Assembly (NCBI GenBank): GCA_964536865.1 | Contig: CAZHYN010000001.1 | Location: 120,001-152,000, forward strand | DNA: 32,000 nucleotides | From: an uncultured Planctomycetia bacterium | GTDB taxonomy: Bacteria; Omnitrophota; Gorgyraeia; Duberdicusellales; 4484-171 | Direction: 5' to 3' | Shown here: positions 10,414 through 28,336 of the stretch, one piece after another | Layout of the letters: each line of letters begins with the position of its first letter | How positions within the stretch are numbered: position 1 is the stretch's first letter | The notes under the pieces: generated by a model | What the model was told of the DNA's origin: nothing | Database searches by the model: none | Seen by the model: only the letters and a program-made list of their open reading frames with translations | Made by a program: the position numbers and the translations under genes

Positions 10414-11130
10414 GTGGAAAAGAAATCAAGGCACTACAAAGTTTATGAGAAAGCAATAAAGAACTGGCCTGAAGATGAACGTCCCAGAGAGAAGCTTTTT
10501 AAATTAGGAGAACACAAACTTTCCAATACTGAACTTTTAGCTATCTTACTCCGTAGTGGTATAAAAGGAGAAAGTGCAATTGACTTGGCAAGGAGAATCA
10601 TTCAAAAATTCAAAACCTTCAGGAATATGAGTCATACCAATTTAAATGATTGGAAAGAATTTAAAGGTTTAGGTCAGGCAAAAATAGCCCAGATTAAAGC
10701 AGCAATTGAAATAGGAAGAAGATTTAGAGAAGAGGAAATAAAAGAAAAACCTCCTCAGATAAAATCCTCCTGTGATGTTGTAGAAATTATGATGCCAAGA
10801 ATGAGAGACTTAAAGAAAGAAGTATTTAAAATACTCCTTCTAAATTCCAAAAACAGGATTCTTGATATTGTAGAAATAACTCAGGGCACAGTAAACCAGG
10901 CAAACCCCATAATAAGAGAAATATTTGAAAAATCTTTACAATCCTATGCTTCATCCATCATCTGCGTCCACAACCATCCTTCCGGAGATCCTAAACCCAG
11001 CAAAGAAGACGAAGAATTCACTAAAAGCTTAACTAAAGCAGGAGAAATTCTAAACATAAAAGTATTGGACCATATCATAATAGGAGATAATAAATATTAC
11101 AGTTTTGCTGATGAGGGAAAAATAAGGTGA
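10414..11130 (+). CDS. radC: RadC-family JAB/MPN domain protein, copy 2
   Basis: Same motifs as copy 1, with a GTG start. Bases 10651-11088 are identical to 8040-8477. Confidence 0.9.
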   Translation: MEKKSRHYKVYEKAIKNWPEDERPREKLFKLGEHKLSNTELLAILLRSGIKGESAIDLARRIIQKFKTFRNMSHTNLNDWKEFKGLGQAKIAQIKAAIEIGRRFREEEIKEKPPQIKSSCDVVEIMMPRMRDLKKEVFKILLLNSKNRILDIVEITQGTVNQANPIIREIFEKSLQSYASSIICVHNHPSGDPKPSKEDEEFTKSLTKAGEILNIKVLDHIIIGDNKYYSFADEGKIR

Positions 11131-13258: not shown

Positions 13259-13266
13259 TCAATGAC

Positions 13267-14799: not shown

Positions 14800-15031
14800 G
14801 AAAAGTAAAGGTATTGATATTGTAACCAAAGAGAAAGTTATCGAAGTTGAAACTAAGAAAGGTTCTTTATACCAAGGAATAAATCAGATAAAAAGAGCTT
14901 CTAAAGCAAGGTATGTTGCAGTTAATAAATTAAATATTAACAATGCTTTAAAGGCTACGAAAGGAACCGGTATAGGAATTATGGGACCTACTGGAAGGAT
15001 AATAAAGAGAGCGAGAAGAAATAAGAAATAA
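14735..15031 (+). CDS. small basic protein with minimal PD-(D/E)xK-like motif
   Basis: Strong GAAGGAGG RBS 5 nt upstream of the ATG. GIDIV-(x7)-IEVETKK fits a D...E-x-K nuclease signature. Overlaps the upstream ORF by 65 nt. Function unverified. Confidence 0.45.
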   Translation: MAKNKHDQIAERLAKKFGVEYKKSKGIDIVTKEKVIEVETKKGSLYQGINQIKRASKARYVAVNKLNINNALKATKGTGIGIMGPTGRIIKRARRNKK

Positions 15032-15033
15032 AA

Positions 15034-16854
15034 TTGCTGGGGCACATGTGGGAAGATAAAGTTTTAAAAGTTGCTTTTTCTATTCATTCAAATCCTGGCA
15101 TATATGCATTGTTGTTGGGTTCTGGAACATCAAGAGAAGCAGGTATTCCTACAGGATGGGAAATAGTAGGAGATTTAATTAAAAAACTTGCCTTTGTTCA
15201 GACCAAAGAGTCATTATCAGATCCCTATAAATGGTATGAAGAAAAATTTGGAGAGAAACCAGATTATTCAAAAATTTTAGAAAAGTTAGCAAGTACTCCT
15301 ATAGAGAGGCAGTCGCTTTTAAGAAGATATTTTGAGCCTACAGAGGAAGAAAAAGAACAAAGAATTAAAATCCCTACAGATACTCATAGGAGTATAGCTA
15401 AATTAGTTAAATATGGATATGTGAAGGTTATTGTCACTACTAATTTTGATCGTTTATTAGAGAAAGCCTTAGGAGAAAAAGGAATAACACCAGTTGTTAT
15501 CAGTACCGATGATGAATTAGAAGGAGCTATTCCTTATGTTCATTCCAATTGCACTTTGATAAAAGTTAATGGAGATTATTTAGATACACGTTTAAGAAAT
15601 ACGATGGGTGAATTGGAAACCTATTCAGAGAAATTGACTTCATTGCTCGAAGAAATTTTTGAAAGATTTGGATTAATTGTGTGTGGATGGTCGGCGAAAT
15701 GGGATATTGCTTTAAGAGATACCATTTTAAGAATAAAAAATAGAAGATTCCCTATGTATTGGCTTTCTAAAGAAGAGGTTACAGAGGAAGCGAAAAGGGT
15801 TATTTCACATAGGCAGGCAGATGTTATAAATATCGAAAGTGCCGATAAGTTTTTTGTTGAACTTTTAGAGAAGATCGAATCTTTACGAGAGTTCGAAAGC
15901 CCACATCCTTTATCTTACAAAGAGGCTGCTATAACTGTTAAACGTTATTTGTCAGATGAAAAGAAAAATAGGATTAAGCTTTATGAGCTTATCGATGAAG
16001 AAACAGAAAAAGTATGGAAAATTTTAGCTTCAGAATATTTTAATATTCAAAAGTTAAAACTTGAACGTAGTTTGATTCAGAAAAGAATACATGAGTATGA
16101 AGAATTGGTAAAACCCCTTATGAATATGCTAATGCCCATTGCTTATTTTAGCAAGGAAGAAGATAATATGCGCTTGATTTCCAGAGCAATAGAACGAATC
16201 GCGCAACCGCATCAGCGAGCTGGCGTTGTAGCATTGATACAATTTCAACATTACCCTGCTTTACTTTTGCTATATGCAGCTGGTCTTGTAAGTTTAGCTA
16301 ATGAAAATTGGAAGGTTTTAAAAGCAGCTTTATTGGAACCACAATATCAAGCTGATAATGAGAAACAACCAATTTTAGAATATATCGAGCCATATTATAT
16401 TTTAAGAAGATTAGGATTTAATAATAATGCAAAAAATAGAATTCTATCTGAAAATGACTATTTATTTTTTCTATTATCTGATTTTGTTAACGAATATATA
16501 CCTGACAAAAATAAATATGAAGAAATATTTGATATTTTTGAATTTTTAATGGCAGTAACTTATGTTTATCAAGTAGTTTTTGTCTATGGGAGTGAAGAAG
16601 ATAAGAAAACATTTAAAGAATCTGAGTATTTACCTACTAAGTTGATTGTTGGACGATTTGCACGGAAATACTTTAGTTGGCATCCCTCTAGAGATTTTGA
16701 AAAGTCTCCAATTGCTAGATTTATAAACGAGGGGATAAAACAAGGTAATGAATGGGGGTTATTGAAAGAAGGATTCTTCGGAGGCTTTATAGAAACGTTT
16801 AAATTGTGCTGTAAAAAATATATAAACACCTTGAGAAAGGTAAGAATCTCTTAA
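15034..16854 (+). CDS. SIR2-like (SIR2_2 type) N-domain protein with uncharacterised ~320-aa C-terminal region
   Basis: LLLGSGTSREAGIPTGWEIVGDL (GAG-S...G-P-W pattern), VIVTTNFDRLLEKAL (TTNYD pattern), LIKVNGDY (position of the KLHG motif). TTG 15034 lies 2 nt after the upstream stop; ATG 15046 is an alternative. Confidence 0.65.
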   Translation: MLGHMWEDKVLKVAFSIHSNPGIYALLLGSGTSREAGIPTGWEIVGDLIKKLAFVQTKESLSDPYKWYEEKFGEKPDYSKILEKLASTPIERQSLLRRYFEPTEEEKEQRIKIPTDTHRSIAKLVKYGYVKVIVTTNFDRLLEKALGEKGITPVVISTDDELEGAIPYVHSNCTLIKVNGDYLDTRLRNTMGELETYSEKLTSLLEEIFERFGLIVCGWSAKWDIALRDTILRIKNRRFPMYWLSKEEVTEEAKRVISHRQADVINIESADKFFVELLEKIESLREFESPHPLSYKEAAITVKRYLSDEKKNRIKLYELIDEETEKVWKILASEYFNIQKLKLERSLIQKRIHEYEELVKPLMNMLMPIAYFSKEEDNMRLISRAIERIAQPHQRAGVVALIQFQHYPALLLLYAAGLVSLANENWKVLKAALLEPQYQADNEKQPILEYIEPYYILRRLGFNNNAKNRILSENDYLFFLLSDFVNEYIPDKNKYEEIFDIFEFLMAVTYVYQVVFVYGSEEDKKTFKESEYLPTKLIVGRFARKYFSWHPSRDFEKSPIARFINEGIKQGNEWGLLKEGFFGGFIETFKLCCKKYINTLRKVRIS

Positions 16855-16857
16855 GTT

Positions 16858-18177
16858 ATGGGAGAAGAATTTAAACAAACAGAGATTGGTAAGATACCGA
16901 AGGAGTGGGAGGTGGTGAGGTTGGGGGAGGTGGTATCAGTATTGAGAAATGGGCTAACTACTAAGCAAAATAAAGAAAAGATAGGTTATCCAGTTACCAG
17001 AATTGAGACGATTTCGGACGAGACAATTGATCAAAGTAAGTTTGGGTATCTAACAAGAGTAAGCGAAAAAGAAATCAAAGAGTATGGGTTGGTTAAAGAC
17101 GACATATTGTTCAGCCACATAAATAGCTTAGCGCACATAGGAAAGACAGCAATCTACAGAGGAATTCCTAGAACTCTGTTGCATGGGATGAATCTGTTAC
17201 TCCTGCGACCAAATAAGCAGAAAGTTAATCCGGTGTTTTTCCTGATGCTATTAAGATTTCTCAGAATGAAGAAGATTTTTGCAAACATGTCTAAAAAAGC
17301 TGTAAATCAAGCCTCGATCAATCAAACAGAACTTAAGAAACTAAAACTACCCCTCCCTCCACTTCCAGAACAACAAAAAATCGCTGAGATTCTTTCAACT
17401 ATGGATGAAGCTATTGAAAAAGTAGATTCTGCCATAGCAAGAACCGAACGGCTCAAAAAGGGCTTGATGCAGGAACTTCTGAATGGGAGTCTGAGAGTCG
17501 GAGAGTCAATGAGTCTAAGAGTCAGAGAGTTAGGAGAGTTTAAGGATACAGAAATCGGCAGGATACCGAAGGAGTGGGAGGTTGTGAGGTTAAAGGAAGT
17601 AGTAGATTTGCTTAGAAATGGTTTAGTTACAAAGCAAAACAAGGATGAAAAAGGTATACCTGTAACACGCATAGAAACGATTTCAGACGAGAGAATTGAT
17701 ACGCAAAAAATTGGCTATATTGAGAAAATATCAGAAGAGGAAATTTCAGAGTACAAACTTCAAAAAGGAGATATACTTTTCAGCCATATCAATAGTCTTG
17801 CACATATAGGAAAAACAGCAATATATGATGGCGAACCTTCCTTATTGCTACACGGAATGAACCTGCTCCTTTTGAGACCACAGAGAACAACCATTGAGCC
17901 TTTTTACCTTTTATATTTATTAAAGTATTACAGAGCCAAGGCAATTTTCAGACACATGTCGAAAAAGGCAGTTAATCAAGCATCGATTAACCAGACAGAA
18001 TTAGGTAGGCTTAGAATTCCATTTCCCCCTCTCCCAGAACAACAAAAAATTGCTGAAATCCTGTCAACTGTTGATAAAAGGCTGGAGCTATTGAGAGAGA
18101 AAAAAGAAAAATTGGAAAGAATAAAGAAAGGATTAATGAATGACCTGCTAACAGGGAAAAAGAGAGTAGTGTTATGA
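16858..18177 (+). CDS. hsdS: type I restriction-modification specificity subunit S
   Basis: Two target-recognition halves, each ending in the conserved LP-LPEQQKIAEILST helix. Starts 3 nt after the SIR2-like stop. Confidence 0.95.
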   Translation: MGEEFKQTEIGKIPKEWEVVRLGEVVSVLRNGLTTKQNKEKIGYPVTRIETISDETIDQSKFGYLTRVSEKEIKEYGLVKDDILFSHINSLAHIGKTAIYRGIPRTLLHGMNLLLLRPNKQKVNPVFFLMLLRFLRMKKIFANMSKKAVNQASINQTELKKLKLPLPPLPEQQKIAEILSTMDEAIEKVDSAIARTERLKKGLMQELLNGSLRVGESMSLRVRELGEFKDTEIGRIPKEWEVVRLKEVVDLLRNGLVTKQNKDEKGIPVTRIETISDERIDTQKIGYIEKISEEEISEYKLQKGDILFSHINSLAHIGKTAIYDGEPSLLLHGMNLLLLRPQRTTIEPFYLLYLLKYYRAKAIFRHMSKKAVNQASINQTELGRLRIPFPPLPEQQKIAEILSTVDKRLELLREKKEKLERIKKGLMNDLLTGKKRVVL

Positions 18178-18556
18178 GTAGACGGCATACAGTAAACAGT
18201 AGACAGGGAAAGGCAGAGAGATTTGAGCAGTTAGAAGTATGGAAAAAGGCACATGAGTTGGTTCTTAAAATAACAAAATTACAAAAGATTTTCCTTCAGA
18301 GGAAAAATTTGGATTAGTTTCACAAATGCGACGTGCTGCTGTATCAATCCCTGCTAATATCGCTGAGGGATTTAAAAAGTATGGCTTAAAAGATAAGAGG
18401 AACTTTTATAACATAGCACAAGGCTCTCTTGAGGAATTAAGATACTATTTAATTTTATCAAAGGAACTTGGATATTGTGAAAATACAGATGAATTTTATA
18501 AAGCAATAGATACAATTGGGAAAATGTTATATGGCCTTATTAAAAGTATACAGTAG
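18174..18556 (+). pseudogene. four-helix-bundle protein (23S rRNA IVS-protein family), frameshifted
   Basis: The N-terminal part (ATG 18174, ...EQLEVWKKAHELVLKI) and the body (DFPSEEKFGLVSQMRRAAVSIPANIAEG..., listed ORF 18326..18556) lie in different frames. The shift falls in the A-rich run near 18265-18285. Flanked by a perfect 15-bp inverted repeat (18192-18206 / 18623-18637). Confidence 0.7.
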
Positions 18557-18658
18557 GCAGTCTACAGCAAACAGGGAATTCGTTGTCAAACAATCTCCCT
18601 GCAGTCTACTGTCTACCGTCTACTGTCTACTGTTTACAAACTCAAAGGAGCACCAAAG

Positions 18659-21600
18659 ATGGCCTTTGATGAAAAACGCCTTGTAGAAGACTATATTATT
18701 AAACAACTTGAAGAGAAAGGATGGAGGTTTGTCCCTGCTAATGCCCTTGAAAGGGACAGCTATGAAGAACCTTTACTTATTCCAAATCTCAGAAGGGCGT
18801 TGGAAAGGATAAATAAAGAATCTGGTATTGGGGATGAGGAAATAAACAAGGCTTTAAATGAACTTAAACTTACCGGTACAGGTATAGAGGGAGCTAAACG
18901 CATTCTTAACTTCTATAAGTTTGGTATTCCAGTGAAGTTTGAGAAAGAGAAAGTGGTAAAGTATATCCAGCTTTTTGATTTTCAAGACATTGAAAACAAC
19001 GAATTCATAGTTTCAAGGCAGGTTTATTTTTATGGTAGGGAAGCCATAAGAACGGACATTATACTCTATGTAAACGGTATTCCTCTGGTAAATATCGAGT
19101 GTAAAAACCCGACAAGTTTGACTGAAAGCTGGCATACCGCTTACAGGCAGATTAAGGATTATGAAAGGCTTGTACCCGAGCTTTATAAATATATTCAGAT
19201 AGGAATAGGAGCTGAGAGTATTGCAAGATATTTCCCCATCGTTCCTTGGCAAGATGAACCTGTGATACACGAATGGCGTGATGAAAAGAAGGATTCAATT
19301 GACTCTACGGTTGAGATGCTATCAAGAAATATCTTGCTTGATATTATTAAAAACTACCTCTTTTATAGAGAATGGAGAGGGGAAGCAACTAAGGTCATAA
19401 CCAGATATATGCAGTATAGAGCTGCTAATAAGATGGTAGATAGGGTCATCAAAAATCTCAAAGGGGAGGAGAAGAAAAATAAAGGCCTTGTATGGCATTG
19501 GCAGGGAAGCGGAAAGACTCTTACCATGCTCTTTGCTGCCAACAAACTTTATTACGCAAAGGAACTCGAGAATCCCACGATATTTTTTATTGTCGATAGG
19601 ATTGAGCTCGAAGACCAGCTTTACAAGGAATTCTATTCTTTAGATATTGTCAAACCGGAGATTATAGGTTCAGTGGATGAACTCAAGGGAATTCTTCAAT
19701 TTGATGATTATCGGGGTAAGCGAGGAGTATTTATAACACTCATTCATAAATTCAGGCCTGAGGAACTTAAAGAACTTTATAAAGAACTCGATGAAGTCAC
19801 AAGATATAAGGAAACAATTATGAACAGAAAAAATGTTATAGCCTTCATTGATGAGGGTCATAGAACCCAATATGGGCTGTTGGCTGCTCAAATGAAGAGT
19901 ATTCTTAAAAGTGCTTTTTTCTTTGCCCTTACTGGAACACCTATATCAAAAAAGGGTAGAGATACCTACCTGGAATTTAGCTATCCACCAGACGAGGTTT
20001 ATCTTGATAGGTATTTCATAACAGATTCCATAAGAGATGGCTTTACAGTAAAGATTGCCTATCAGCCAAGGCTTGAGAAAGAAGTCCATCTGAGGAAAGA
20101 TTTACTTAAAGCATTTTTAGAGGCAGAAGAGGAAGAACTGCCTGAGGAGATAAGAGATGATATAAAAGGCAGAATTAAAAAGAGGTTGAATGCTATAAAG
20201 GTAGTGCTTGAAAATCCACAGCGTATAAAGGTAATAGCAGAGGATATAGCAAAACATTTTAAGGAGCATATTGACGGGAAGTTTAAAGCCATGGTGGTAG
20301 CAGGTAGTAGAAAGGCCTGCCATATCTATAAACAAGAACTTGATAGACACCTGCCACCAGAATATTCAGAGATAGTGATGACATATAGAAGAGACGATGA
20401 ACAGCCCCTTGTGAAGAGGATTGCAGAGACACGAGAAAGATATGGAAATAGAGATATATCTGATATAAGAAAGGATATAGTAGAGAAGTTTAAAGAAGAA
20501 GCATTCCCTAAAATACTTATTGTCACTGATATGCTTCTTACAGGATTTGATGCTCCTATTTTGCAAGTTATGTATCTTGATAAACTACTTAAAGAACATA
20601 GACTTCTCCAAGCAGTGGCGAGGACGAATAGACCATATAAAGATTTAAAAGAAGGAGGCCTTATAATTGATTATGTAGGAATACTCAAGGAATTTAGGAA
20701 AGCCCTTGAGATGTATAATGAAGAGGATATTAGACTGGCACTTACAAGCTTCGACGGGATCAGGGAAGAATTTGCCTTACTCCTCAGAGAGATTCTTGAA
20801 ATACTTAAAGAAGTATCCAGAAATTATGAGAGGGAAGTACTCCTTAAAGCTTGTGAAATACTCACCACTGAGAAGACAAAAGAAAAGGAATTCATTGAGA
20901 AATATAAAAGTTTAAGAAAGGCCTTTGAGCTCCTTGGTCCTGACGAAATTAAACTTGAATATTTCGAAGATTATAAATGGATTTCAGCGATTTATACATA
21001 CTACATGAGAACAGTACTACAGAAACCACCTGTTGAAGAATATGTAGAGAGGTATTACGAGAAAACTGTAAGATTCATACATAAGGCTACAGAGATAAAA
21101 AAGTTGGAAACAGACCTGCCAATAGTAGCTTTTGACGAAGGATACCTTAAGGCGCTTGAGGAGAGGGTTAAAAGCAGGAAGGAGAAAGCTGCTAACATTC
21201 TTTTTACACTAAATAGATTAGTTCTCGTTGAAAGACACAGAAACCCTATTTATGAGTCTCTCGTAGAAAAAGTTGAAAGACTGCTTGAGCTCTGGAAGGA
21301 GAAAACAAAGGATTATGAAAGGATATACAGAGAAGGTGTAATAGCAATCAATGAAATAAAGTCTCTTTCTGAAAGACAAAAATCATTGGGCTTTTCTGAC
21401 CTTGAATATTCGCTACTGCTTGCTCTTGAAGAAAAATTTGGTAAAGAGGAAGAATTGGTAAGTGAGGTAAGAGATATATCAGAAAGGCTTAAAAACTATA
21501 TGTTTCCTGGTTGGTTTAATCAGCCTACCGTAGAAAAAAATGTAGAAAGAGAAGTAAGGAGATTTGTTAGGGGATTTAAGGGAAAGTATAGCATGACTTT

Positions 21601-21664
21601 GGAAGAAATGGACCAACTTTATAAGAAACTTATTGAAAGAGTAAAGAACTATGGGACTTCATAA
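18659..21664 (+). CDS. hsdR: type I restriction enzyme R subunit
   Basis: N-terminal PD-(D/E)xK (DIILYVNGIPLVNIECK), Walker A WQGSGKTLTM, DEAH-type box FIDEGHRTQ, motif VI QAVARTNR. Confidence 0.95.
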   Translation: MAFDEKRLVEDYIIKQLEEKGWRFVPANALERDSYEEPLLIPNLRRALERINKESGIGDEEINKALNELKLTGTGIEGAKRILNFYKFGIPVKFEKEKVVKYIQLFDFQDIENNEFIVSRQVYFYGREAIRTDIILYVNGIPLVNIECKNPTSLTESWHTAYRQIKDYERLVPELYKYIQIGIGAESIARYFPIVPWQDEPVIHEWRDEKKDSIDSTVEMLSRNILLDIIKNYLFYREWRGEATKVITRYMQYRAANKMVDRVIKNLKGEEKKNKGLVWHWQGSGKTLTMLFAANKLYYAKELENPTIFFIVDRIELEDQLYKEFYSLDIVKPEIIGSVDELKGILQFDDYRGKRGVFITLIHKFRPEELKELYKELDEVTRYKETIMNRKNVIAFIDEGHRTQYGLLAAQMKSILKSAFFFALTGTPISKKGRDTYLEFSYPPDEVYLDRYFITDSIRDGFTVKIAYQPRLEKEVHLRKDLLKAFLEAEEEELPEEIRDDIKGRIKKRLNAIKVVLENPQRIKVIAEDIAKHFKEHIDGKFKAMVVAGSRKACHIYKQELDRHLPPEYSEIVMTYRRDDEQPLVKRIAETRERYGNRDISDIRKDIVEKFKEEAFPKILIVTDMLLTGFDAPILQVMYLDKLLKEHRLLQAVARTNRPYKDLKEGGLIIDYVGILKEFRKALEMYNEEDIRLALTSFDGIREEFALLLREILEILKEVSRNYEREVLLKACEILTTEKTKEKEFIEKYKSLRKAFELLGPDEIKLEYFEDYKWISAIYTYYMRTVLQKPPVEEYVERYYEKTVRFIHKATEIKKLETDLPIVAFDEGYLKALEERVKSRKEKAANILFTLNRLVLVERHRNPIYESLVEKVERLLELWKEKTKDYERIYREGVIAINEIKSLSERQKSLGFSDLEYSLLLALEEKFGKEEELVSEVRDISERLKNYMFPGWFNQPTVEKNVEREVRRFVRGFKGKYSMTLEEMDQLYKKLIERVKNYGTS

Positions 21665-22482: not shown

Positions 22483-22584
22483 TAAGTTTTCTTTTCGTCC
22501 TGAGTTTTCTTGAGATACAGGCGGTGAGGATACGTCTTTTAAATATTTTGTTATACCCTTAAAATCTTTAAAATATTGGAATAT

Positions 22585-22700
22585 TTAATCACTTCCCATT
22601 TTCTCCCCCCACACCTCCTCAAACTCTCCTGAACCACGTAGGGTCTTAAGGGGATGCCCTATGTTCTTTTTTATCCACTTCCTCATTTTTCCTCATCCCA
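22585..22700 (-). pseudogene. decayed paralog of the 3' end of the gene at 24317..24619
   Basis: The minus strand reads ...KNEEVDKKEH... and ...GEFEEVWGEKMGSD* in two frames, versus KNKEVDKSAYREFERVWEEMKY* in the intact gene. DNA similarity is visible (TCCCACAC.C.CTCAAACTC, TTATCCACTTCCT). Confidence 0.35.
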
Positions 22701-22748
22701 ATACAAGCCTTCCTGACCGACACCCTTCTCAAAATTTGACATTTTTCT

Positions 22749-22925
22749 CATTCTCAAATTCTTAAGAATATTAGAATAATTTCTGCCTCCACATTGGAAT
22801 AGTTTCTGTCTCCATTTTATTTTTAGTCTTTCCCTTTACCATTCTCAAATTCTTAAGAACGTTGGAATAATCCCCAATCTTCATACCTACTTTCTCATTC
22901 TCAAATTCTTAAGAATATTGGAATA
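22749..22925. repeat. upstream cluster of the 30-bp palindromic repeat (R1-R3)
   Basis: CATTCTCAAATTCTTAAGAAYRTTRGAATA at 22749-22778, 22840-22869 and 22896-22925. Partial copies lie near 22561-22586 and 22790-22802. The core is a 28-bp imperfect palindrome centred on ATTCTT|AAGAAT. R3 contains the -35 (TTGGAA 22918-22923) of a TGn-TATAAT promoter (22938-22946). Confidence 0.85.
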
Positions 22926-22954
22926 TTTTAATGAATGTGATATAATTTAAGAAG

Positions 22955-23245
22955 ATGAAAAGCTCGCAAAAGAAGAATAAAAATTATCGTAAGTTAGAAA
23001 GGATTGTTAAAGGATTTGCAAATCATCGCAGAATTCAAATCTTAGAGCTTTTAGAGAAAAATCCAGAGTTGTCAGTTATTGAAATTACTCAAGAATTGAA
23101 TATGAATTTTAAGACTGCTTCTGAACACATAAGAAGGCTTGCTATCTCAGGTTTAATTATGAAAAGGTCTGATGGCAAAAGTATTCGTCACAAGCTTACA
23201 GAGAGAGGTCTAAAAGTTCTCAAATTCTTAAGAACATTGGAATAG
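22955..23245 (+). CDS. ArsR/SmtB-family winged-helix transcriptional regulator
   Basis: KGFANHRRIQILELLEKNPELSVIEITQELNMNFKTASEHIRRLAISGLI fits the ArsR wHTH pattern. The ATG lies only 8 nt after the -10, so the mRNA is probably leaderless. The last 10 codons are repeat copy R4. Confidence 0.8.
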   Translation: MKSSQKKNKNYRKLERIVKGFANHRRIQILELLEKNPELSVIEITQELNMNFKTASEHIRRLAISGLIMKRSDGKSIRHKLTERGLKVLKFLRTLE

Positions 23246-23366
23246 AAACCTTCAATTTTTTATATCCTTTTCTTTATTCTCAAATTCTTAAGAATATTAG
23301 AATAGCTCCTCTAATTTACTTTTTCAGTTTTCTTATCATTCTCAAATTCTTAAGAACATTGGAATG
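23215..23366. repeat. downstream cluster of the 30-bp palindromic repeat (R4-R6)
   Basis: Copies at 23215-23244 (inside the gene's 3' end), 23275-23304 and 23337-23366. Spacers are 30 and 32 bp. Confidence 0.85.
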
Positions 23367-23441
23367 ATAAAGATATCTTACTTTTGCTCTCCACACACCC
23401 TGCCACCGATTTGTCTATATCTTTTAAAACTTTATAAATAT

Positions 23442-23481
23442 TTACACTACATTTTTAACTTTATGGTATAATGTAGTGTAA
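23442..23481. promoter_or_regulatory. 40-bp palindrome P1 enclosing an extended -10 promoter element
   Basis: TTACACTACAT-N18-ATGTAGTGTAA. The loop contains TGGTATAAT (23465-23471 region). An AAGGAGGG RBS follows. Confidence 0.6.
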
Positions 23482-23492
23482 GGAGGGTTTTG

Positions 23493-23798
23493 ATGAAAGT
23501 ATTAAGAAATATTTTAGAAGAAAGTAAAGAGTATTACCTTAAAGTTAAAAAGAAGATAGAGAGAAAAATTAAAAATTTACCTAAGGGTAGCGTTAAAGAA
23601 AGAAGGATTTGTGGTAAAAAGTACTATTATCTTCAATATCGAGAAGGTAAAAAAGTAATTCATAAATATTTAGGTAAAAATAAACCCGAAAACCTCATAA
23701 GACAGATTAAGGAAAGGAAGGTATTATTAAATGAGATGAAGAAAGTAAACGAGGCTATTGAGTTAATTAACAGGACAGAGAAGAGAAAAAGGAGATGA
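23493..23798 (+). CDS. small basic coiled-coil protein, possible antitoxin/regulator partner of the downstream gene
   Basis: ORF with a good RBS; its stop overlaps the next start (ATGA). LPKGSVKERRICGKKYYYLQYREGKK motif. No confident family assignment. Confidence 0.35.
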   Translation: MKVLRNILEESKEYYLKVKKKIERKIKNLPKGSVKERRICGKKYYYLQYREGKKVIHKYLGKNKPENLIRQIKERKVLLNEMKKVNEAIELINRTEKRKRR

Positions 23799-24306
23799 TT
23801 GAATCGGTTAGAAAGATTTTAAAGACATTCTATGAAAATAACCTTTTTGAAGAAGGAGTAGAACTTATAGGAAGCTGGTGCTTTCAATTTTATGTAAAGC
23901 ATTTAGGTGCCAAGCCTTTTCCTCTAAGAACTCAGGATATTGATTTTTTAATTCCTTACCCTTTTAAAGGGGAAGACCATAAAGATTTAATAGAGCAATT
24001 AGAGAAATTAGGTTTTAAGAAAGATTTTACTATAGAAGGACATTTATTTTTATGGAACCAAGATTTAAAAATAGAATTTTTGGTTTCCCAGAAGAATAAA
24101 GAATTAAAAGACTTCAGCAAGCAATATGCACATTTTCTATTGTAGAGAAAAAATATTTACAGAAATTATTGAATTCTTTACCCAAAAGATGGAGAAGAGC
24201 AATTTTTAATCTACTTAAGAAAGCTAAAGAAGAATTTCCTTTATATAAAGAAGATATAGAGAGTTTTCTTCTTACACTACAAGATATTAAAATTAAGAAA
24301 TTGTAG
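23795..24306 (+). pseudogene. nucleotidyltransferase-fold (AbiEii/GSU2403-like) gene, truncated and frameshifted
   Basis: The N-terminal 116 aa (ELIGSWCFQFY...LRTQDIDFLIP) end at a stop at 24143-24145. A C-terminal-like piece (EKKYLQKLLNSLPKRW...QDIKIKKL*) continues in another frame to 24306. The total length is well below what I expect for the family. Confidence 0.45.
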
Positions 24307-24311
24307 TGTAA
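24272..24311. repeat. 40-bp palindrome P2, twin of P1
   Basis: TTACACTACAA-N18-TTGTAGTGTAA. Same arms and same 18-nt spacing as P1; covers the stop at 24304-24306. Confidence 0.7.
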
Positions 24312-24316
24312 TTAGG

Positions 24317-24619
24317 TTAATATTTCATCTCCTCCCACACTCTCTCAAACTCCCTATACGCTGATTTATCCACTTCCTTATTCTTGTTATACTCAAAAAC
24401 CAACTCTCCTGTATCCACCAAAGGTGGATCCGCCTCTGGCGGATAATGCTCATAAATCAAAATTTCATCATTTTCTTTCACAATGTCCACCGTAACAGTG
24501 TTAGGTTTAACAACCTGTTTTTCTTTGCCAATAGAGTACCCTAACAATAATCCAACAACCAAATACATCCCCAAAATAAAATATGCCTCAATCCTCCTAT
24601 AAGTAACACTACCTGACAT
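24317..24619 (-). CDS. small membrane-anchored hypothetical protein
   Basis: 100-aa ORF with one N-terminal TM helix (AYFILGMYLVVGLLLGYSI); AGGAG-like RBS upstream on the minus strand. Contains element copy E5. Confidence 0.5.
   Translation of the reverse strand: MSGSVTYRRIEAYFILGMYLVVGLLLGYSIGKEKQVVKPNTVTVDIVKENDEILIYEHYPPEADPPLVDTGELVFEYNKNKEVDKSAYREFERVWEEMKY
24415..24444 (+). repeat. two-hairpin junction element, copy E5
   Basis: CCACC-AAA-GGTGG, then ATCCGCC-TCT-GGCGGAT (perfect 7-bp stem). Confidence 0.6.
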
Positions 24620-24683: not shown

Positions 24684-24934
24684 TCATAATTTTTGCGCCC
24701 CACTGGCAGAGATTACCCCCTTTCTTATAGTCCTTTCAGTAATAAACGTCTCTTTTTCATATTTTAAGATGTAGTTCTGTTCTTCCTTAGGCAGTTTTAG
24801 AAGGTTTAAAAACTGAGTTATTCTTACCCTGGATACTCCCAGTCTTTTAGCCAATTCAGTCTGAGTAAGCTTCTCTTTTTAAGCGATTTCAGGTATTCTT
24901 TAGCCCTAACTATAGGATTTATATAAGGATTTAA
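24684..24934 (-). pseudogene. small HTH (XRE/ParB-like) gene with frameshift
   Basis: The minus strand reads ...RAKEYLKSLKK, then after a shift in an A-run, KEKLTQTELAKRLGVSRVRITQFLNLLKLPKEEQNYILKY...*. No intact start codon. Confidence 0.4.
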
Positions 24935-25251: not shown

Positions 25252-25290
25252 ATTTACTAATTAAGTTCTTTAAATTGATCTTTGTATATT

Positions 25291-25485
25291 TTTCTTCTGG
25301 TGCCTTAAAGGCTTAATAGGGAACTTCGTGAAAATCGGAGGCTGTCCCGCAGCTGTAATGGGGGACGAAAGGCGCTATTTTCCGAGGTTATGTCGGGATG
25401 AAGTGCCACTACCCCGACGTTAAGTCGGGATGGGAAGGCGCGCCAAGTAGATTGATCCCAGAGCCAGAAGACCTGCCAGAAGAAA
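25291..25485 (+). promoter_or_regulatory. cobalamin (B12) riboswitch aptamer
   Basis: GGTGCC...AATAGGGAA...GTGAAAATC...GCTGTCCCGCAGCTGTAA...GCCACT...GGGAAGGC, and the B12 box AGAGCCAGAAGACCTGCC (25460-25477). The P1 stem is CTTCTGG (25293-25299) paired with CCAGAAG (25475-25481). Confidence 0.85.
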
Positions 25486-25547
25486 GGTGAAGTAGAATTA
25501 TCGTAGAATGATTCTACTTTTGAGAGACGAAGTAAATCAGGGTGCAG

Positions 25548-25589
25548 TCCCGCCTCTTTCATTTTGAAAGGAGCGGGATTTTTTATTTT
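25548..25589 (+). terminator. riboswitch expression-platform terminator
   Basis: TCCCGCCTCTTTC-ATTTT-GAAAGGAGCGGGA followed by TTTTTTATTTT. Lies directly upstream of the nrdD RBS. Confidence 0.65.
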
Positions 25590-25604
25590 GAAAGGAGGTT
25601 AAGT

Positions 25605-27707
25605 ATGGAGAGGGTATTTACGAAAATAACAAAAAGAGACGGAAGAATAGAAGATTTCAATTCCTCTAAGATAACTCAAGCTATAGCTAAAGCTGGAATT
25701 GCTACAGGTGAATTTGACAAAGAGATTGCAAAAAAACTTACTCTTAAGGTTTTGAATTTAGCTTCGCAAATTATTAAAGACCGCACTCCTTTAGTTGAGG
25801 AGATCCAAGATATAGTGGAAGAAATTTTATTATCATCCCCTTATAAAAAAACAGCTAAAGCCTACATAATTTATAGAGACCAACATGCAAAACTAAGAGA
25901 GCTAAGTAATAAATTTAATTTAAATTTAGTTGAGCAGTATTTAAATAAGGAAGATTGGCAAGTAAGAGAAAATAGCAATATGAGTTTTTCCCTTCAGGGG
26001 CTAAATAATTATATTTCATCTGAAATAAGTAAAATTTACTGGCTTAATAAGATTTATCCTCTCAAGATCAGAGAAGCACATCTAAATGGAGATTTTCATA
26101 TTCATGATCTAGGATTATTAAGTGTTTATTGTGTAGGATGGGATTTGCAGGATCTATTACTTGAGGGATTTAAGGGAGCTTCTGGTAAAATAGAGTCAAA
26201 ACCTGCAAAGCATTTTAGATCTGCTTTAGGTCAGATTGTAAATTTTTTCTATACTCTTCAAGGTGAAGCTGCAGGAGCTCAGGCTTTCTCTAATTTCGAT
26301 ACACTACTTTCTCCTTTTATAAGGTACGATGGTCTAAGTTATAAAGAAGTAAAACAAGCTCTGCAAGAGTTTTTATTCAACTTAAATGTCCCTACCCGAG
26401 TAGGTTTTCAGACTCCTTTTACCAATATTACTTTGGATCTGGTCGTTCCTTTTCATCTTGCAAATCAAGCAGTAATAATTGGAGGAAGCCCTCAAAACAA
26501 TACTTATAAAGATTTCCAGAAAGAGATGGAGATATTTAATAAGGCATTTTTAGAAGTTATGCTTGAGGGAGATGCTAAAGGAAGAGTATTTACTTTTCCT
26601 ATTCCTACCTACAACATCAGCAAAGATTTCGATTGGGATAATCCCAATCTTTCATTATTGTGGGAGTTAGCTGGAAAATATGGAGTTCCTTACTTTGCTA
26701 ACTTTATCAATTCTAGTATGAGGCCTGAAGACGCAAGGAGTATGTGTTGTAGATTAAGAATCGATAATCGCCAGCTTAGGAAAAGAGGAGGGGGGTTATT
26801 TGGAGCCTCTCCTCTTACTGGTTCTATAGGTGTAGTTACGATAAATATGGTAAGGTTAGGGTTTCTGTCTAGAGATGAAGATGAGTTTTTTGAAAGATTA
26901 GATAATTTGATGCTTCTTGTAAAGGAGAGTCTGGAAATAAAAAGAAAAGTTCTTGAAAGATTTACTGAGAATAGTTTGTATCCTTATATGAAGTTTTATT
27001 TAAGAAATGTAAAGGAAAGGTTTAATGAGTATTGGAAAAATCATTTTTCGACAATTGGTGTGATAGGCATGAACGAAGCATGTCTTAATCTATTTGGTGA
27101 AGGTATAGCTACGCCTCGGGGGAAAGATTTTACTTTAAGAGTTTTGGATTTTATGAGAGAAAAATTACTGGAGTTTCAGATGGATACAGGAAACAGTTAC
27201 AATTTAGAAGCCACACCTGCAGAAGGAGCATCTTTTAGGTTAGCTAAATTGGATAAAGAGCAATATCCCCAGATTATTTGTGCTAATGAAGAGGATTTTA
27301 GAAAAGGTGCTTCTCCTTTTTATACAAATTCTACGCATCTTCCTGTAAATTATACAGATGATATCTTTGAAGTGCTCGAACATCAAGACGAGATCCAGGT
27401 CCGTTATACAGGAGGAACTGTTCTTCATATTTATCTAGGAGAGAGAATAAAAGAGCCAGGTGCTCTTAAAAAATTAATCAAAATTATTTGTTCAAATTAC
27501 AAATTACCTTATTTTACCATTACCCCTACTTTCAGTATCTGTCCTCAGTGTGGTTATATTCCCTACGAGACAGAGATATGTTCTAGATGTGGTAGTAGAT
27601 GTGAAATTTATTCAAGAATAGTTGGATATTTAAGGCCAACATCTCAATGGAACCAGGGGAAGCAAGAGGAATTTAGAATACGAAAAACATTTAAGGTGAA
27701 CGTATGA
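25605..27707 (+). CDS. nrdD: anaerobic ribonucleoside-triphosphate reductase (class III)
   Basis: N-terminal ATP-cone (ITKRDGRIEDFNSSKITQAI); C-terminal Zn-ribbon CPQCG...CSRCG; glycyl-radical motif RIVGYLRP. Start moved to ATG 25605 (AAAGGAGG RBS), because the listed 25542 start runs through the terminator. Confidence 0.95.
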   Translation: MERVFTKITKRDGRIEDFNSSKITQAIAKAGIATGEFDKEIAKKLTLKVLNLASQIIKDRTPLVEEIQDIVEEILLSSPYKKTAKAYIIYRDQHAKLRELSNKFNLNLVEQYLNKEDWQVRENSNMSFSLQGLNNYISSEISKIYWLNKIYPLKIREAHLNGDFHIHDLGLLSVYCVGWDLQDLLLEGFKGASGKIESKPAKHFRSALGQIVNFFYTLQGEAAGAQAFSNFDTLLSPFIRYDGLSYKEVKQALQEFLFNLNVPTRVGFQTPFTNITLDLVVPFHLANQAVIIGGSPQNNTYKDFQKEMEIFNKAFLEVMLEGDAKGRVFTFPIPTYNISKDFDWDNPNLSLLWELAGKYGVPYFANFINSSMRPEDARSMCCRLRIDNRQLRKRGGGLFGASPLTGSIGVVTINMVRLGFLSRDEDEFFERLDNLMLLVKESLEIKRKVLERFTENSLYPYMKFYLRNVKERFNEYWKNHFSTIGVIGMNEACLNLFGEGIATPRGKDFTLRVLDFMREKLLEFQMDTGNSYNLEATPAEGASFRLAKLDKEQYPQIICANEEDFRKGASPFYTNSTHLPVNYTDDIFEVLEHQDEIQVRYTGGTVLHIYLGERIKEPGALKKLIKIICSNYKLPYFTITPTFSICPQCGYIPYETEICSRCGSRCEIYSRIVGYLRPTSQWNQGKQEEFRIRKTFKVNV

Positions 27708-28336
27708 GGATAGGAGGACTTCAGAAATTTTCCCTGATAGATTATCCAGAAAAACTTAGCTGTGTAATCTTTACCCAAGGTTGTAATTTTAGATGCCCTT
27801 TTTGCCATAACCCAGAGCTTGTTTATCCGTATCTTTTTAAAGAGACGATTCCTTGCGAAGACATATTTAAATTTTTAGAAAAAAGAAAAGGTCAATTAGA
27901 AGGAGTAGTAATTACTGGAGGCGAGCCTACAATACACAAGGATTTGATAGGATTTATAGAAAAAATTAAAGCGTTTGGGTATTTTATAAAATTAGATACT
28001 AATGGAAGCAACCCTTTTATGCTAAAAAAAATAATCAAATGCAAACTCGTAGATTTTATTGCTATGGATATAAAGGCACCACTAGAGAAATATAATATCT
28101 TGGCAGGAGTAGAGGTTAACTTGGATGCTGTTCTTCAAAGTATCGAGATTATTAGAAAATCCAAGATAAATTATAAATTTAGAACAACCTATGTTACATC
28201 TCTTTTAGATGAAGTTGATATTTCAAAGATAAAAAAAATGATTGAAGACGAAGAGAGATATAAAATTCAAGAATTTATTCCCCCCAGAGATAGTACTGGT
28301 AGGTTAATAGTTGATAAGAAGTTAGGCACAAATTGA
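27704..28336 (+). CDS. nrdG: anaerobic ribonucleotide reductase activating protein (radical SAM)
   Basis: CNFRCPFCHN (CxxxCxxC) cluster motif. The start overlaps the nrdD stop (ATGA). Confidence 0.9.
   Translation: MRIGGLQKFSLIDYPEKLSCVIFTQGCNFRCPFCHNPELVYPYLFKETIPCEDIFKFLEKRKGQLEGVVITGGEPTIHKDLIGFIEKIKAFGYFIKLDTNGSNPFMLKKIIKCKLVDFIAMDIKAPLEKYNILAGVEVNLDAVLQSIEIIRKSKINYKFRTTYVTSLLDEVDISKIKKMIEDEERYKIQEFIPPRDSTGRLIVDKKLGTN

Follow-up and report, generated by a model that had tools for sequence, protein, structure and literature searches.

A 28-bp palindrome that forms the last codons of an ArsR/SmtB-type gene and amplified around that gene in an Omnitrophota genome

The window considered here is a 32-kb stretch of DNA from an Omnitrophota genome, on contigs of 245−359 kb; its genomic context includes nrdD, nrdG, and an RND efflux operon. 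A 96-aa ArsR/SmtB-type gene lies at 22955−23245, and six copies of ATTCTCAAATTCTTAAGAAYRTTRGAAT are found around it and at its end, all on the plus strand; the copy at 23216 has G in place of A at position 1 as its single mismatch. The initial annotation had described these as 30-bp units, and its six positions are confirmed, each 28-mer starting 1 nt inside the longer unit; gaps of 63, 28, 291, 32, and 34 bp between 28-mers correspond to the 61, 26, 289, 30, and 32 bp it gave between 30-mers. The two partial copies it listed are real as well, so that six full and two partial copies occupy 810 bp around the gene. Elsewhere in the window no further copy of the 28-mer occurs, and 100 dinucleotide-preserving shuffles contain no match at ≤3 mismatches; none is expected by chance. 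The features of the array are the following:

22555−22582, plus strand: R0, a degenerate copy consisting of an R3-like right arm and TATTTAAT, which resembles the start of the R3 promoter; 6 mismatches to the consensus
22585−22748, minus strand: X1, what remains of the 3′ portion of a gene on the minus strand, abutting R1 and paralogous to 24317−24480
22750−22777, plus strand: R1, repeat copy followed by TAA
22791−22802, plus strand: partial copy, ACATTGGAATAG, a short duplication of the right arm and its flank
22841−22868, plus strand: R2, repeat copy followed by TAA
22897−22924, plus strand: R3, presumed operator, whose right arm TTGGAA (22918−22923) is the −35 of the gene promoter
22938−22946, plus strand: extended −10, TGaTATAAT, with the ATG 8 nt further on; the mRNA is probably leaderless
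22955−23245, plus strand: gene for the 96-aa ArsR/SmtB-type winged-helix protein without cysteine (Pfam, PDB, AlphaFold2/Foldseek)
23216−23243, plus strand: R4, in-gene copy that encodes VLKFLRTLE and contributes the T of TAG, the stop codon
23276−23303, plus strand: R5, repeat copy followed by TAG
23338−23365, plus strand: R6, repeat copy followed by TGA, with flanks TTATC/GATAA that lengthen the palindrome

R6 is the only copy in the window with a stable hairpin, as its flanks extend the palindrome. R0 belongs to repeat family D1 at 67%. The assignment of X1 is based on direct repeats D4, D6, and D10; in alignment A1 it pairs with 24300−24520 of the window and with two segments of the related locus L004, which abut repeats as well. 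The repeat is 28−30 bp long, partly palindromic, and has a periodicity of 56−62 bp in four intervals; the spacers are homologous to one another, and copy number varies among L075, L076, L077, L004, and the window. Judged from these alignments, the window array is made of tandem duplicates of one ~60-bp unit (28-mer plus ~32-bp spacer). Outside the window lineage the repeat is present as two copies only, one at each gene end, and the array is considered to be a local elaboration of a conserved module that was amplified in the Omnitrophota lineage of the window.

The 96-aa protein scores 31.5 bits for Pfam HTH_5 and 33.2 bits for HTH_24, above the respective cut-offs of 22 and 21.9, and 52.2 bits for NCBIfam NF033788, slightly below the cut-off of 55; a sequence search of the PDB returns HlyU (E = 8e-8) together with ArsR-family proteins. 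The top Foldseek matches to its AlphaFold2 model (mean pLDDT 86) are SqrR, AspA, HlyU, and SmtB; AspA, the centromere-binding protein of pNOB8, is ranked second and is the closest fit among the leading ArsR-type structural matches, with an rmsd of 1.6 Å over 74 columns. The protein is predicted to have the DNA-binding ArsR/SmtB winged-helix fold, in which the residues encoded by R4 form the C-terminal helix (residues 83−95 in the model); a catalytic domain is absent according to Pfam, the PDB search, and the AlphaFold2 model. Metal sites of ArsR/SmtB proteins feature Cys or His residues in α3N or α5; the protein in the window contains no cysteine and lacks residues for metal or ligand sensing, which is compatible with membership of the fold family, as non-sensing members exist. 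The number of homologues found is 1191.

The same protein and site occur together in hundreds of uncultured bacterial genomes, where the pair is previously undescribed; in the literature the motif string was found only in unrelated primers and constructs, and no paper was found that ties Patescibacteria, ArsR, and such a palindrome together. For the family analysis, 80 metagenome loci were selected by peptide motifs away from the C-terminus, i.e., by protein motifs alone. In 78 of these 80 independently sampled loci the last nine codons of the gene consist of the 28-mer, and in 78 of 80 the gene is flanked by two copies; 76 upstream copies were obtained from the set. This supports two proposals of the initial annotation, that the repeat is tied to the winged-helix gene and that R4 is the 3′ end of the gene itself, where it supplies the last nine codons and the first base of the stop.

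Codon choice in the in-gene copy differs from that in the rest of the gene: the Phe codon is TTC in 69/69 cases (vs. 23%), the Arg codon is AGA in 69/69 (vs. 28%), the Leu codons are TTA or TTG in 67/68 and 67/69 (vs. 49%), and the Glu codon is GAA in 69/70 (vs. 63%). Some amino-acid changes in this segment preserve or even improve the DNA site; a change from K to M creates a perfect palindrome, while a change from L to C creates a CTGCAG centre that is present in both copies of the same locus, and the two copies within one locus tend toward matching centres. The in-gene 28-mer is considered, from these comparisons, to be kept by selection on the DNA itself. The symmetric form of the 28-mer pattern is ATTCNNANNTTCTNNAGAANNTNNGAAT; its invariant core (TTC, A, TTCT, then AGAA, T, GAA) suggests that the sequence itself is recognized, and not simply a hairpin. 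Protein identity across phyla is 55−80%, and both protein and site are unusually conserved at this distance; the genes adjacent to the regulator vary from lineage to lineage. A conserved operon partner was rejected because each locus has other genes downstream; from our own reading of the sequences these presumably include PD-(D/E)XK-like, glycosyltransferase-like, relA/spoT, rsmI, NUDIX, tsaC-like, and ligA genes.

The triplets that follow R1 to R6 are TAA, TAA, TAT, TAG, TAG, and TGA; the earlier count of stops after five of six copies is therefore correct, however the conclusion drawn from it, that the copies are relic gene ends, fails. TAA, TAG, or TGA also follows 50/67 upstream copies and 30/39 orphan copies (75−77%), and since these never-genic copies show the same rate, the triplet is no mark of a relic gene; it is the mirror image of a pyrimidine-rich (YY) left flank. 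The relic interpretation is further weakened by the origin of the window units as tandem duplicates of one repeat-plus-spacer unit.

The promoter of the window gene consists of TTGGAA (22918−22923), a 17-bp spacer, TG, and TATAAT (22941−22946); it matches 10 of 12 positions and is the best promoter-like site of its region. Of the upstream copies, 42% have a −10 with at least 5/6 matches 16−18 bp beyond the right arm, compared to 3% of background positions, and the start codon follows the −10 by 6−11 nt in about half of the well-defined family promoters. In nearly all family loci a second copy lies upstream, with its right arm serving as the −35 of the promoter that drives the gene, often in a leaderless arrangement. 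The suggestion that R3 supplies the −35 of an extended −10 promoter for a probably leaderless, autoregulated gene is thereby supported, the geometry being family-wide; the layout is that of an autorepressor, and the gene is probably autoregulated.

The repeats are hypothesized to be binding sites of the 96-aa protein, with the locus an amplified version of a conserved protein-plus-site module; we give this reading somewhat better than an even chance, and an operator array is the best fit among the possibilities first raised for the locus. A dimeric form of the protein would bind the 28-mer over the −35 and repress its own transcription, while the in-gene 28-mer would probably act as an auxiliary operator, through looping or as a roadblock just before the next co-directional gene. 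In the window Omnitrophota lineage, tandem duplication of the ~60-bp unit took place both upstream and downstream of the gene, and unequal recombination between copies would then change copy number and delete or swap the intervening DNA. Some points count against this model. No regulon is visible for the orphan copies (see below). With its own two sites as the only clear targets, self-regulation gives no evident reason for an identity of 55−80% across phyla, and something appears to be missing; furthermore, the covarying perfect palindromes and flanks of upstream copies seem to exceed what a simple dimer operator would require.

Orphan copies are intergenic in 69/79 placeable cases, in surrounding sequence that is 84% coding. 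Copy numbers of the 28-mer are low, each genome having between a few and ~15. One genome has 13 exact copies over 9 contigs; most genomes in the exact-pattern genome scan have the gene-linked copy only. A regulon was rejected as an explanation of the orphan copies: promoter geometry is seen at 1% of them (vs. 3% background), they are not enriched in divergent intergenic regions, and among 129 neighbouring proteins Pfam finds 193 families, none with more than three proteins. No positional pattern relative to gene starts or ends was found. The orientation of asymmetric orphan copies against flanking genes, a proxy for Ter polarity over genome pieces of 8 to 12 kb, gives 22 same and 13 opposite, which is not significant, and a polar, Ter-like orientation was rejected. 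In one Caldisericota genome six orphan copies have a common 35-nt left flank, and a perfect copy lies inside a ~30-aa lineage-specific insertion in fpg; two fpg copies differ through compensatory changes.

Several other explanations draw on the behavior of the copies in related genomes, where the variation between repeats that the initial annotation had proposed to look for is indeed seen. Compared to the window, L004 lacks the gene, R2, and R3 but keeps the junction of X and R and the R4 spacer; homology of L061 to L001 and L007 ends ≤5 nt from a copy; and L122 has the order A-R′-2.2 kb cargo-R-gene where L128 and L137 have A-R-gene. The copies are considered recombination-prone, as insertions and deletions are bounded by copies in all three comparisons, which are too few and too diverged to place breakpoints within the 28-mer; such changes fit a role in recombination at least as well as they fit an operator. 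Cargo at copies in the window lineage includes toxin-antitoxin and defence-type genes. The copies could belong to a cassette that is selfish or mobile, or to a system of recombination sites, with the 28-mers (11 + 6 + 11 bp, as in the core site of a tyrosine recombinase) as direct-repeat substrates of a host enzyme, the winged-helix protein as specificity or accessory factor, the orphans as solo sites or non-autonomous derivatives, and cargo integrating and excising between copies, as in pdif modules, integron cassettes, and REP/RAYT systems. Besides the three comparisons, the fusion of R3 and its promoter (65 nt, 97% identical) to different genes in L039, the perfect copy in the fpg insertion, the lineage-specific neighbours of the regulator gene, the agreement between centres of the two copies of a locus, and the shared left flank in Caldisericota all favor such a system. 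However, recombinases and transposases are not enriched near the gene or the orphan copies (129 orphan neighbours) and none is found in the window, relatives are absent from viral contigs, phage records, and plasmid records, and deletion between direct repeats of 28 to 44 bp requires no dedicated enzyme; the 28-mer also seems unlike the canonical XerD arm of dif. The cassette is syntenic among relatives at 80−90% nucleotide identity, so any mobility must be slow. This explanation is considered unlikely; of the earlier suggestion of recombination at the repeat, the breaks in homology at copies stand while the association with a recombinase does not. A more speculative form, to which we likewise give a minor share of belief, is that protein and palindrome constitute an ancient self-propagating pair in Patescibacteria, Omnitrophota, Caldisericota, and possibly DPANN archaea; the site in the last codons would make the two inseparable by recombination, and copies at the ends would let host machinery excise, insert, or swap cargo, leaving REP-like solo copies. 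If true, the pair would represent a new kind of minimal element, mobile or recombinogenic, with a DNA-binding protein at its core in place of a transposase. A role in chromosome architecture, by analogy to ParB/parS, AspA, SopB/sopC, and RTP or Tus with their Ter sites, would have the protein mark scattered sites that act in segregation, in nucleoid organisation, or in the arrest of replication forks while regulating itself, with the window array as a centromere-like loading platform. The dispersed, mostly intergenic orphan copies without common neighbour function, the genome with 13 exact copies, the cross-phylum conservation of protein and site, and the rank of AspA among structural matches are in its favor, and a phased-site array beside the gene recalls sopC or parC; recombination is known to be frequent at protein-bound roadblocks, and this could account for the insertions and deletions at copies. 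Against it, no partner of the ParA, ParM, or TubZ type occurs in the window or recurs beside the gene or orphan copies, the asymmetric orphans show no orientation bias, and the gene-linked copy stands alone in most scanned genomes; the window has no GC-skew switch and is thus neither origin nor terminus. The site and protein have no relatives in IMG/VR viral contigs or in phage and plasmid records, where the sole plasmid match is a generic ArsR at 40% identity; a phage or plasmid origin was rejected on this basis and on the chromosomal context, and the check on replicon type returned an Omnitrophota chromosome with no plasmid or phage link. With both the partner NTPase and the plasmid context missing, the comparison to ParR/parC or TubR/tubC centromeres is not supported, and the architectural role as a whole is rated quite improbable.

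Two further explanations concern the repeat as a structure in itself. Selection could act on an RNA or single-stranded DNA hairpin instead of protein binding, for example as a signal for processing, stability, or priming. In favor of this, the variable positions of the core and flanking sequence of up to 13 bp change together across 67 upstream copies so that a perfect palindrome is kept, with 76.8% paired cells compared to 67.2% in shuffles (reached by 0/500) and 40−45% with slid partners, and a covariation score of 0.321 compared to 0.165 in shuffles and 0.11−0.15 when slid. Perfect copies fold at about −20 kcal/mol, and the compensatory differences between the two fpg copies agree with this. 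However, the bases of the "loop" and inner stem are the most conserved (TTCT and AGAA are invariant in 67/67), the upstream copy precedes the predicted transcription start, no T-tract follows the hairpin, and Rfam has no match to the repeat; template-switch "quasipalindrome correction" could also perfect palindromes without selection. A hairpin as the universal functional form was rejected, since five of six window copies fold no better than shuffled sequence (z-scores near 0), and the hairpin explanation is held to be very improbable. A degenerate CRISPR-like array, raised in the initial annotation, has in its favor the partly palindromic repeat of 28−30 bp and the 56−62 bp periodicity; however, the spacers are homologous to each other, which a CRISPR array would not show, and are conserved between relatives, a protein gene lies within the array, with one repeat as part of its coding sequence, and elsewhere there are single copies at the two gene ends. 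No cas gene is present among the scanned ORFs of the window (all of at least 90 aa, minus overlapping ORFs at 13734−14045, 17322−17672, and 28630−29067), and an Rfam scan of 21500−25600, which included CRISPR direct-repeat families, returned a cobalamin riboswitch only. CRISPR was rejected on the spacers, the lack of cas genes, and the single copies outside the window lineage, and is given next to no credence.

If the protein does bind the 28-mer, few known pairs of protein and site in the candidate phyla radiation and Omnitrophota would be as conserved as these two; both groups are very poor in regulators, and our literature searches found no experimentally defined operator for them. Binding would also make the gene an extreme case of dual coding, in which the site fixes codons, and even amino acids, of the C-terminal helix of its own binder; furthermore, the copies, with their breakpoints and variable cargo, may shape accessory-gene turnover where classical mobile elements seem to be missing.

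The protein-plus-site module can be compared to several known systems. HlyU, SdpR, and SmtB are ArsR/SmtB-family autorepressors and are the best match to the window protein in sequence and fold; the module resembles them in having a winged helix of ~100 aa, presumably dimeric, and a palindrome over its own promoter, however the window protein has neither cysteine nor metal-site residues nor a regulated effector operon, its presumed operator is repeated as the last nine codons of the gene with extra copies dispersed or in tandem, and protein and site are conserved across phyla. Auxiliary operators in coding regions are known from lac O2 in lacZ and gal OI in galE; there too a second, downstream operator lies in coding sequence, and here it could loop ~320 bp to the promoter operator, but in this family it sits in the final codons of the regulator itself and constrains the protein sequence. 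AspA of pNOB8, SopB/sopC of F, ParR/parC, and TubR/tubC share with the locus a small self-regulated DNA-binding protein and a site array beside its gene, AspA also having a fold very close to that of the 96-aa protein, and parS inside spo0J is a site within the gene of its binder that is conserved across phyla, as is the 28-mer; unlike partition systems, the locus has no partner NTPase or adaptor gene, is chromosomal, and in most family members has two sites. The replication terminators RTP/Ter of Bacillus and Tus/Ter of E. coli provide another comparison, RTP being a winged-helix dimer: like the module, RTP/Ter has sites of ~30 bp that could take two dimers, a gene beside one site and regulated through it, and other sites dispersed without relation to neighbouring genes, but RTP matches the window protein neither in sequence nor specifically in fold, and the orphan copies have no orientation bias. 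REP/RAYT, pdif, and attC elements are likewise short imperfect palindromes scattered between genes, with a single flanked gene and variable cargo bounded by copies, and a Xer site has the same 11+6+11 layout as the 28-mer; the module differs from these systems in its few copies, in the lack of a linked recombinase, and in a binder that is predicted to be a winged-helix protein, not an HUH (Y1) transposase or integrase.

The 28-mer ATTCTCAAATTCTTAAGAAYRTTRGAAT is present six times on the + strand, at 22750 (R1), 22841 (R2), 22897 (R3), 23216 (R4, one mismatch), 23276 (R5) and 23338 (R6), as the initial annotation had described around a winged-helix gene; the window has no further copy, and none of 100 dinucleotide-preserving shuffles matched. 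Both partial copies that it had suspected are real as well, and are listed here with the gene.

Partial copies and regulator gene
22555-22582, partial copy with an R3-like right arm
22791-22802, partial copy, right arm duplicated together with its flank
22955-23245, + strand, regulator ORF of 96 aa; Pfam HTH_24 and HTH_5 (ArsR), both above cut-offs

The nearest solved relatives of the protein are HlyU and other ArsR/SmtB proteins; in its AlphaFold2 model (mean pLDDT 86) the winged-helix layout is as expected, with a C-terminal helix at residues 83-95, the part encoded by copy R4. The region's best promoter-like site consists of TTGGAA (22918-22923, within R3), a 17-bp spacer, TG and TATAAT with the regulator ATG 8 nt past the -10, in agreement with the proposal that R3 supplies the -35 of a TGn-TATAAT promoter.

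The regulator gene and its 28-mer form a widespread, conserved module. An exact 26-nt pattern from the repeat finds 72 matches in species-representative genomes. Most of these carry the labels Patescibacteria, Omnitrophota and Caldisericota; some fall under Planctomycetota, Gammaproteobacteria or Actinomycetota or come from two archaeal bins, and for matches on short contigs the label is possibly unreliable. Homologues of the 96-aa protein number 1191 at E ≤ 0.001, and the best 120 of them (67-100% identity) nearly all have a C-terminal [IV]LKFLR[TIM]LE. Because selection on the DNA site was to be avoided, 80 metagenome loci were fetched by peptide motifs away from the C-terminus (NFKTASEH and V[KR]GF[AS]NHRR); in 78 of them the 28-mer makes up the final nine codons and the first base (T) of the stop, and the set yields 76 upstream copies. 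The regulator gene mostly lies inside a run of co-directional genes; the next downstream gene points the same way in 55 of 65 loci, the median gap being about 34 nt, so the in-gene copy sits just before the start of this gene, the identity of which varies from locus to locus. Viral contigs, phage records and plasmid records gave no relatives of the site or the protein, and no mention of the motif or protein family was found in the literature searched.

The in-gene copy is selected as DNA, as seen in the codons of the regulator's end.

Codon use in the last nine codons, with the same codons in the rest of the genes
Phe: TTC 69/69; rest of genes 23%
Arg: AGA 69/69; rest of genes 28%
Leu (two positions): TTA or TTG 67/68 and 67/69; rest of genes 49%
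Glu: GAA 69/70; rest of genes 63%
Ile: ATT 45/45; rest of genes 57%

The protein itself changes to suit the site in some lineages: with M (ATG) in place of K the site becomes the perfect palindrome ATTCTAATGTTCTTAAGAACATTAGAAT, and C in place of L gives a CTGCAG centre that is also found in the upstream copy of the same locus. At the variable positions 9, 20 and 21 the agreement between upstream and in-gene copies per locus exceeds that of any of 5000 shuffles, phylogenetic relatedness being uncontrolled in this comparison.

The upstream copy is arranged as an autorepressor operator would be. The hexamer in its right arm (TTGGAA, TTAGAA or TTGAGA) serves as the -35, and a -10 matching at least 5/6 positions follows 16-18 bp beyond the right arm in 42% of unique upstream copies, compared with 3% of random positions, 6% of in-gene copies and 1% of orphan copies (those away from a regulator gene); half of these -10 boxes carry a TGn extension. 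The start codon falls 6-11 nt past the -10 in 13-15 of 28 well-defined promoters, hence leaderless mRNA is common in the family.

Five of the six window copies are indeed followed by a stop triplet, as had been counted; the reading of these stops as relic gene ends fails, since TAA, TAG or TGA stands in the same register after 50/67 upstream operator copies (75%, unbiased sample) and 30/39 orphan copies (77%), which are never gene ends. To their left these copies mostly have TT, CT or TC, which the stop triplet mirrors: with the flanked consensus YY-ATTC...GAAT-RR, T plus AA, AG or GA makes a stop, and the window's five of six is simply the family norm.

The array of the window is a tandem repeat of about 60 bp (28-mer plus a spacer of about 32 bp) that expands and contracts, as its spacers are mutually alike (e.g. 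agaaaccttcaattttttatatccttttcttt, gaaagtcttcaattttttacatctactttctc, gaaacttttaactctttacattctttcccctc) and some are common to relatives. Arrays of the same kind occur in L004, a locus of Omnitrophota AUK132, and in L075, L076 and L077, loci of relatives with 94-99% protein identity; their unit numbers differ, from 2 to 4 on each side of the gene. The module of other lineages has only two copies, one per gene end; this and the homology of the spacers led to rejection of the degenerate CRISPR-like array that had been suggested, and the window ORFs scanned include no Cas protein.

The symmetry of the palindrome exceeds the need of a simple operator. Among 67 unique upstream copies the core (TTC, A, TTCT | AGAA, T, GAA) is invariant or nearly so, and the variable positions covary in pairs (5/24, 6/23, 8/21 and 9/20). 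In an ungapped alignment 76.8% of cells are paired, as against 67.2% in shuffles (0/500 reach it) and 40-45% with partners slid by 1-3 columns; the covariation score reaches 0.321, compared with 0.165 for shuffles and 0.11-0.15 for slid partners. Complementarity also runs into the flanks, with a mean extension of 3.2 bp versus 0.96 in shuffles (maximum 1.55 in 5000); the longest, 13 bp, produces a 54-bp perfect palindrome. The invariant "loop" and inner stem argue for sequence-specific recognition. The covarying periphery could arise from cruciform or hairpin formation or, alternatively, from quasipalindrome correction by template switching, which is mutational and can act without selection. 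A hairpin is no universal requirement, since five of the six window copies, all of the asymmetric gene-end type, give folds no better than those of shuffled sequence; R6 alone is stable (-7.2 kcal/mol, z = -4.3).

Junctions at copies in three comparisons, together with the fusions in L039 and the fpg palindromes, show that copies are recombination-prone and can be gained or lost. L004 is 92% identical to window 23275-24361, yet lacks the regulator gene; its order is an X segment (a relic abutting R1 in the window), one copy, the R4-R5 spacer, one copy and the flank found after R6, the arrangement that an R1-R4 deletion plus an R5-R6 deletion would produce, and further upstream two more copies bound six unrelated genes. 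The related loci L061 and L007 have 304 nt in common at 91% identity, the match stopping within 5 nt of a copy, and L001, from the same bin as L007, has the other flank of L061. L122 has two copies with 2.2 kb of cargo between them, preceded by gene A and followed by the promoter and the regulator gene; in L128 and L137 a single copy separates gene A from the promoter and the regulator gene. In L039 (1-1602), R3 and its promoter (65 nt, 97% identical to window 22896-22960) are fused to different genes, with three unrelated ORFs of 92, 102 and 205 aa behind this promoter; the 102- and 205-aa ORFs were scanned and have no Pfam match, and the former has an RNIVTH string reminiscent of the HEPN R-x4-6-H motif. 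In two related genomes fpg (MutM) carries, in frame, a perfect 44-bp palindrome of the 28-mer family, within an insertion of roughly 30 aa that is absent from solved MutM proteins.

Palindromes in fpg
about 4042-4085 in L152
about 9046-9089 in L150
about 3901-3944 in L142

Between L150 and L152 there are compensatory substitutions, and the centre is flipped (CTCAAG vs CTTGAG).

The X segments (window 22585-22748 and 24317-24480; L004 150-300 and 3433-3560) are diverged copies of the 3' part of a minus-strand 100-aa ORF (24317-24619); all but one of these four segments lie immediately next to a repeat copy, as though the repeat had become joined to this gene fragment several times. Six orphan copies in the Caldisericota MAG JAADFP01 (L011, L013, L034, L049, L051, L067) have a common left flank of about 35 nt (…aaaataaccgctaaaatgcactgctgctcttt), which also precedes the regulator gene's operator copy in L070, from a different MAG; in that lineage the dispersed unit is thus about 65-70 nt.

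Orphan copies are without a visible regulatory theme. Of 100 unique copies classified, 69 are intergenic, 10 lie inside genes and 21, at locus edges, are unplaced, in sequence that is 84% coding; the intergenic ones fall between tandem (52), convergent (11) and divergent (6) genes, roughly tracking intergenic DNA amounts, with no excess in promoter-rich divergent regions. The 129 flanking proteins share no function (193 Pfam families, none in more than three proteins), and the orientation bias of asymmetric copies relative to flanking genes is not significant (22 vs 13).

The window comes from the chromosome of a Candidatus Omnitrophota genome. Assemblies L073 and L074 are identical to it, and clustering at 90% identity places its NrdD in a group named Omnitrophota, with contigs of 245-359 kb. 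The island upstream of the repeats is rich in defence and toxin-antitoxin genes, with Panacea/SocA, Fic, two RadC, three AlbA_2/Schlafen proteins, a YgjP-like peptidase, an SNase fragment and a type I restriction-modification system; on the downstream side are a DUF6788/nucleotidyltransferase gene pair, the 100-aa minus-strand ORF, a ParB-HTH fragment and a cobalamin riboswitch directly 5' of the anaerobic ribonucleotide reductase genes nrdD and nrdG (25542-28336).

Features of the neighbourhood
11471-21664, type I restriction-modification system, hsdM at 11471, hsdS at 16858, extra genes between
13267 onwards, inserts between hsdM and hsdS: AlbA_2/Schlafen-Fic_C protein (13267), 98-aa ORF, SIR2-like protein (15034)
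24684-24854, - strand, 56-aa ORF with ParB-type HTH (PF17762, E = 9e-5), which looks like a fragment of a ParB/KorB-like gene
25281-25494, + strand, cobalamin riboswitch (Rfam RF00174, 107 bits, E = 5e-27)

At about 18326-18556 there is a gene call for a 23S rRNA intervening-sequence protein (PF05635). The two RadC-like JAB genes (7803-8516 and 10414-11130) have near-identical Pfam scores, lie about 2.6 kb apart and each adjoin an AlbA_2/HATPase_c_4 gene, which suggests a segmental duplication within the defence island.

The nucleotidyltransferase gene beside the array encodes 116 aa in the window (23795-24145) versus 232 aa in L004 (4093-4791), and is probably a pseudogene, as BLAST pieces imply a 186-bp deletion at about 24093. 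A 47-nt inverted repeat (23439-23485 / 24268-24314; 72% complementary, core ACACTACA/TGTAGTGT) brackets the DUF6788/nucleotidyltransferase pair; as its left arm overlaps the pair's TATAAT promoter, it may represent either an operator for the pair or the termini of a small cassette. A DUF6788-like/NTase-like gene pair in L091 (4764-5900) has an orphan copy 121 bp upstream, much as R6 lies 124 bp before 23490 in the window; pair and repeat may travel together.

The best-supported mechanism, which we place somewhat on the probable side of even, is that the ArsR-type protein would repress its own gene through an operator at its -35, with the last nine codons of the gene serving as a second operator and the operator unit amplified in tandem in the window's lineage. 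Two further readings are compatible with such self-regulation. A slow-moving selfish or recombinogenic cassette is rather unlikely; the recombination-site proposal of the initial annotation has some support from the junctions at copies, but no recombinase stands out among the proteins flanking orphan copies, and the window ORFs scanned include no integrase or transposase. A chromosome-architecture role like that of ParB/parS, AspA or RTP/Ter seems quite improbable; the top Foldseek matches to the model are SqrR, AspA (the pNOB8 centromere-binding protein; rmsd 1.6 Å) and HlyU, and no partition ATPase is among the window ORFs scanned. An autoregulated winged-helix repressor is an already known kind of system; what is new here is the site inside the regulator's own coding end, the cross-phylum conservation of protein and site, and the presence of dispersed and tandem copies together, a combination that merits experimental follow-up.
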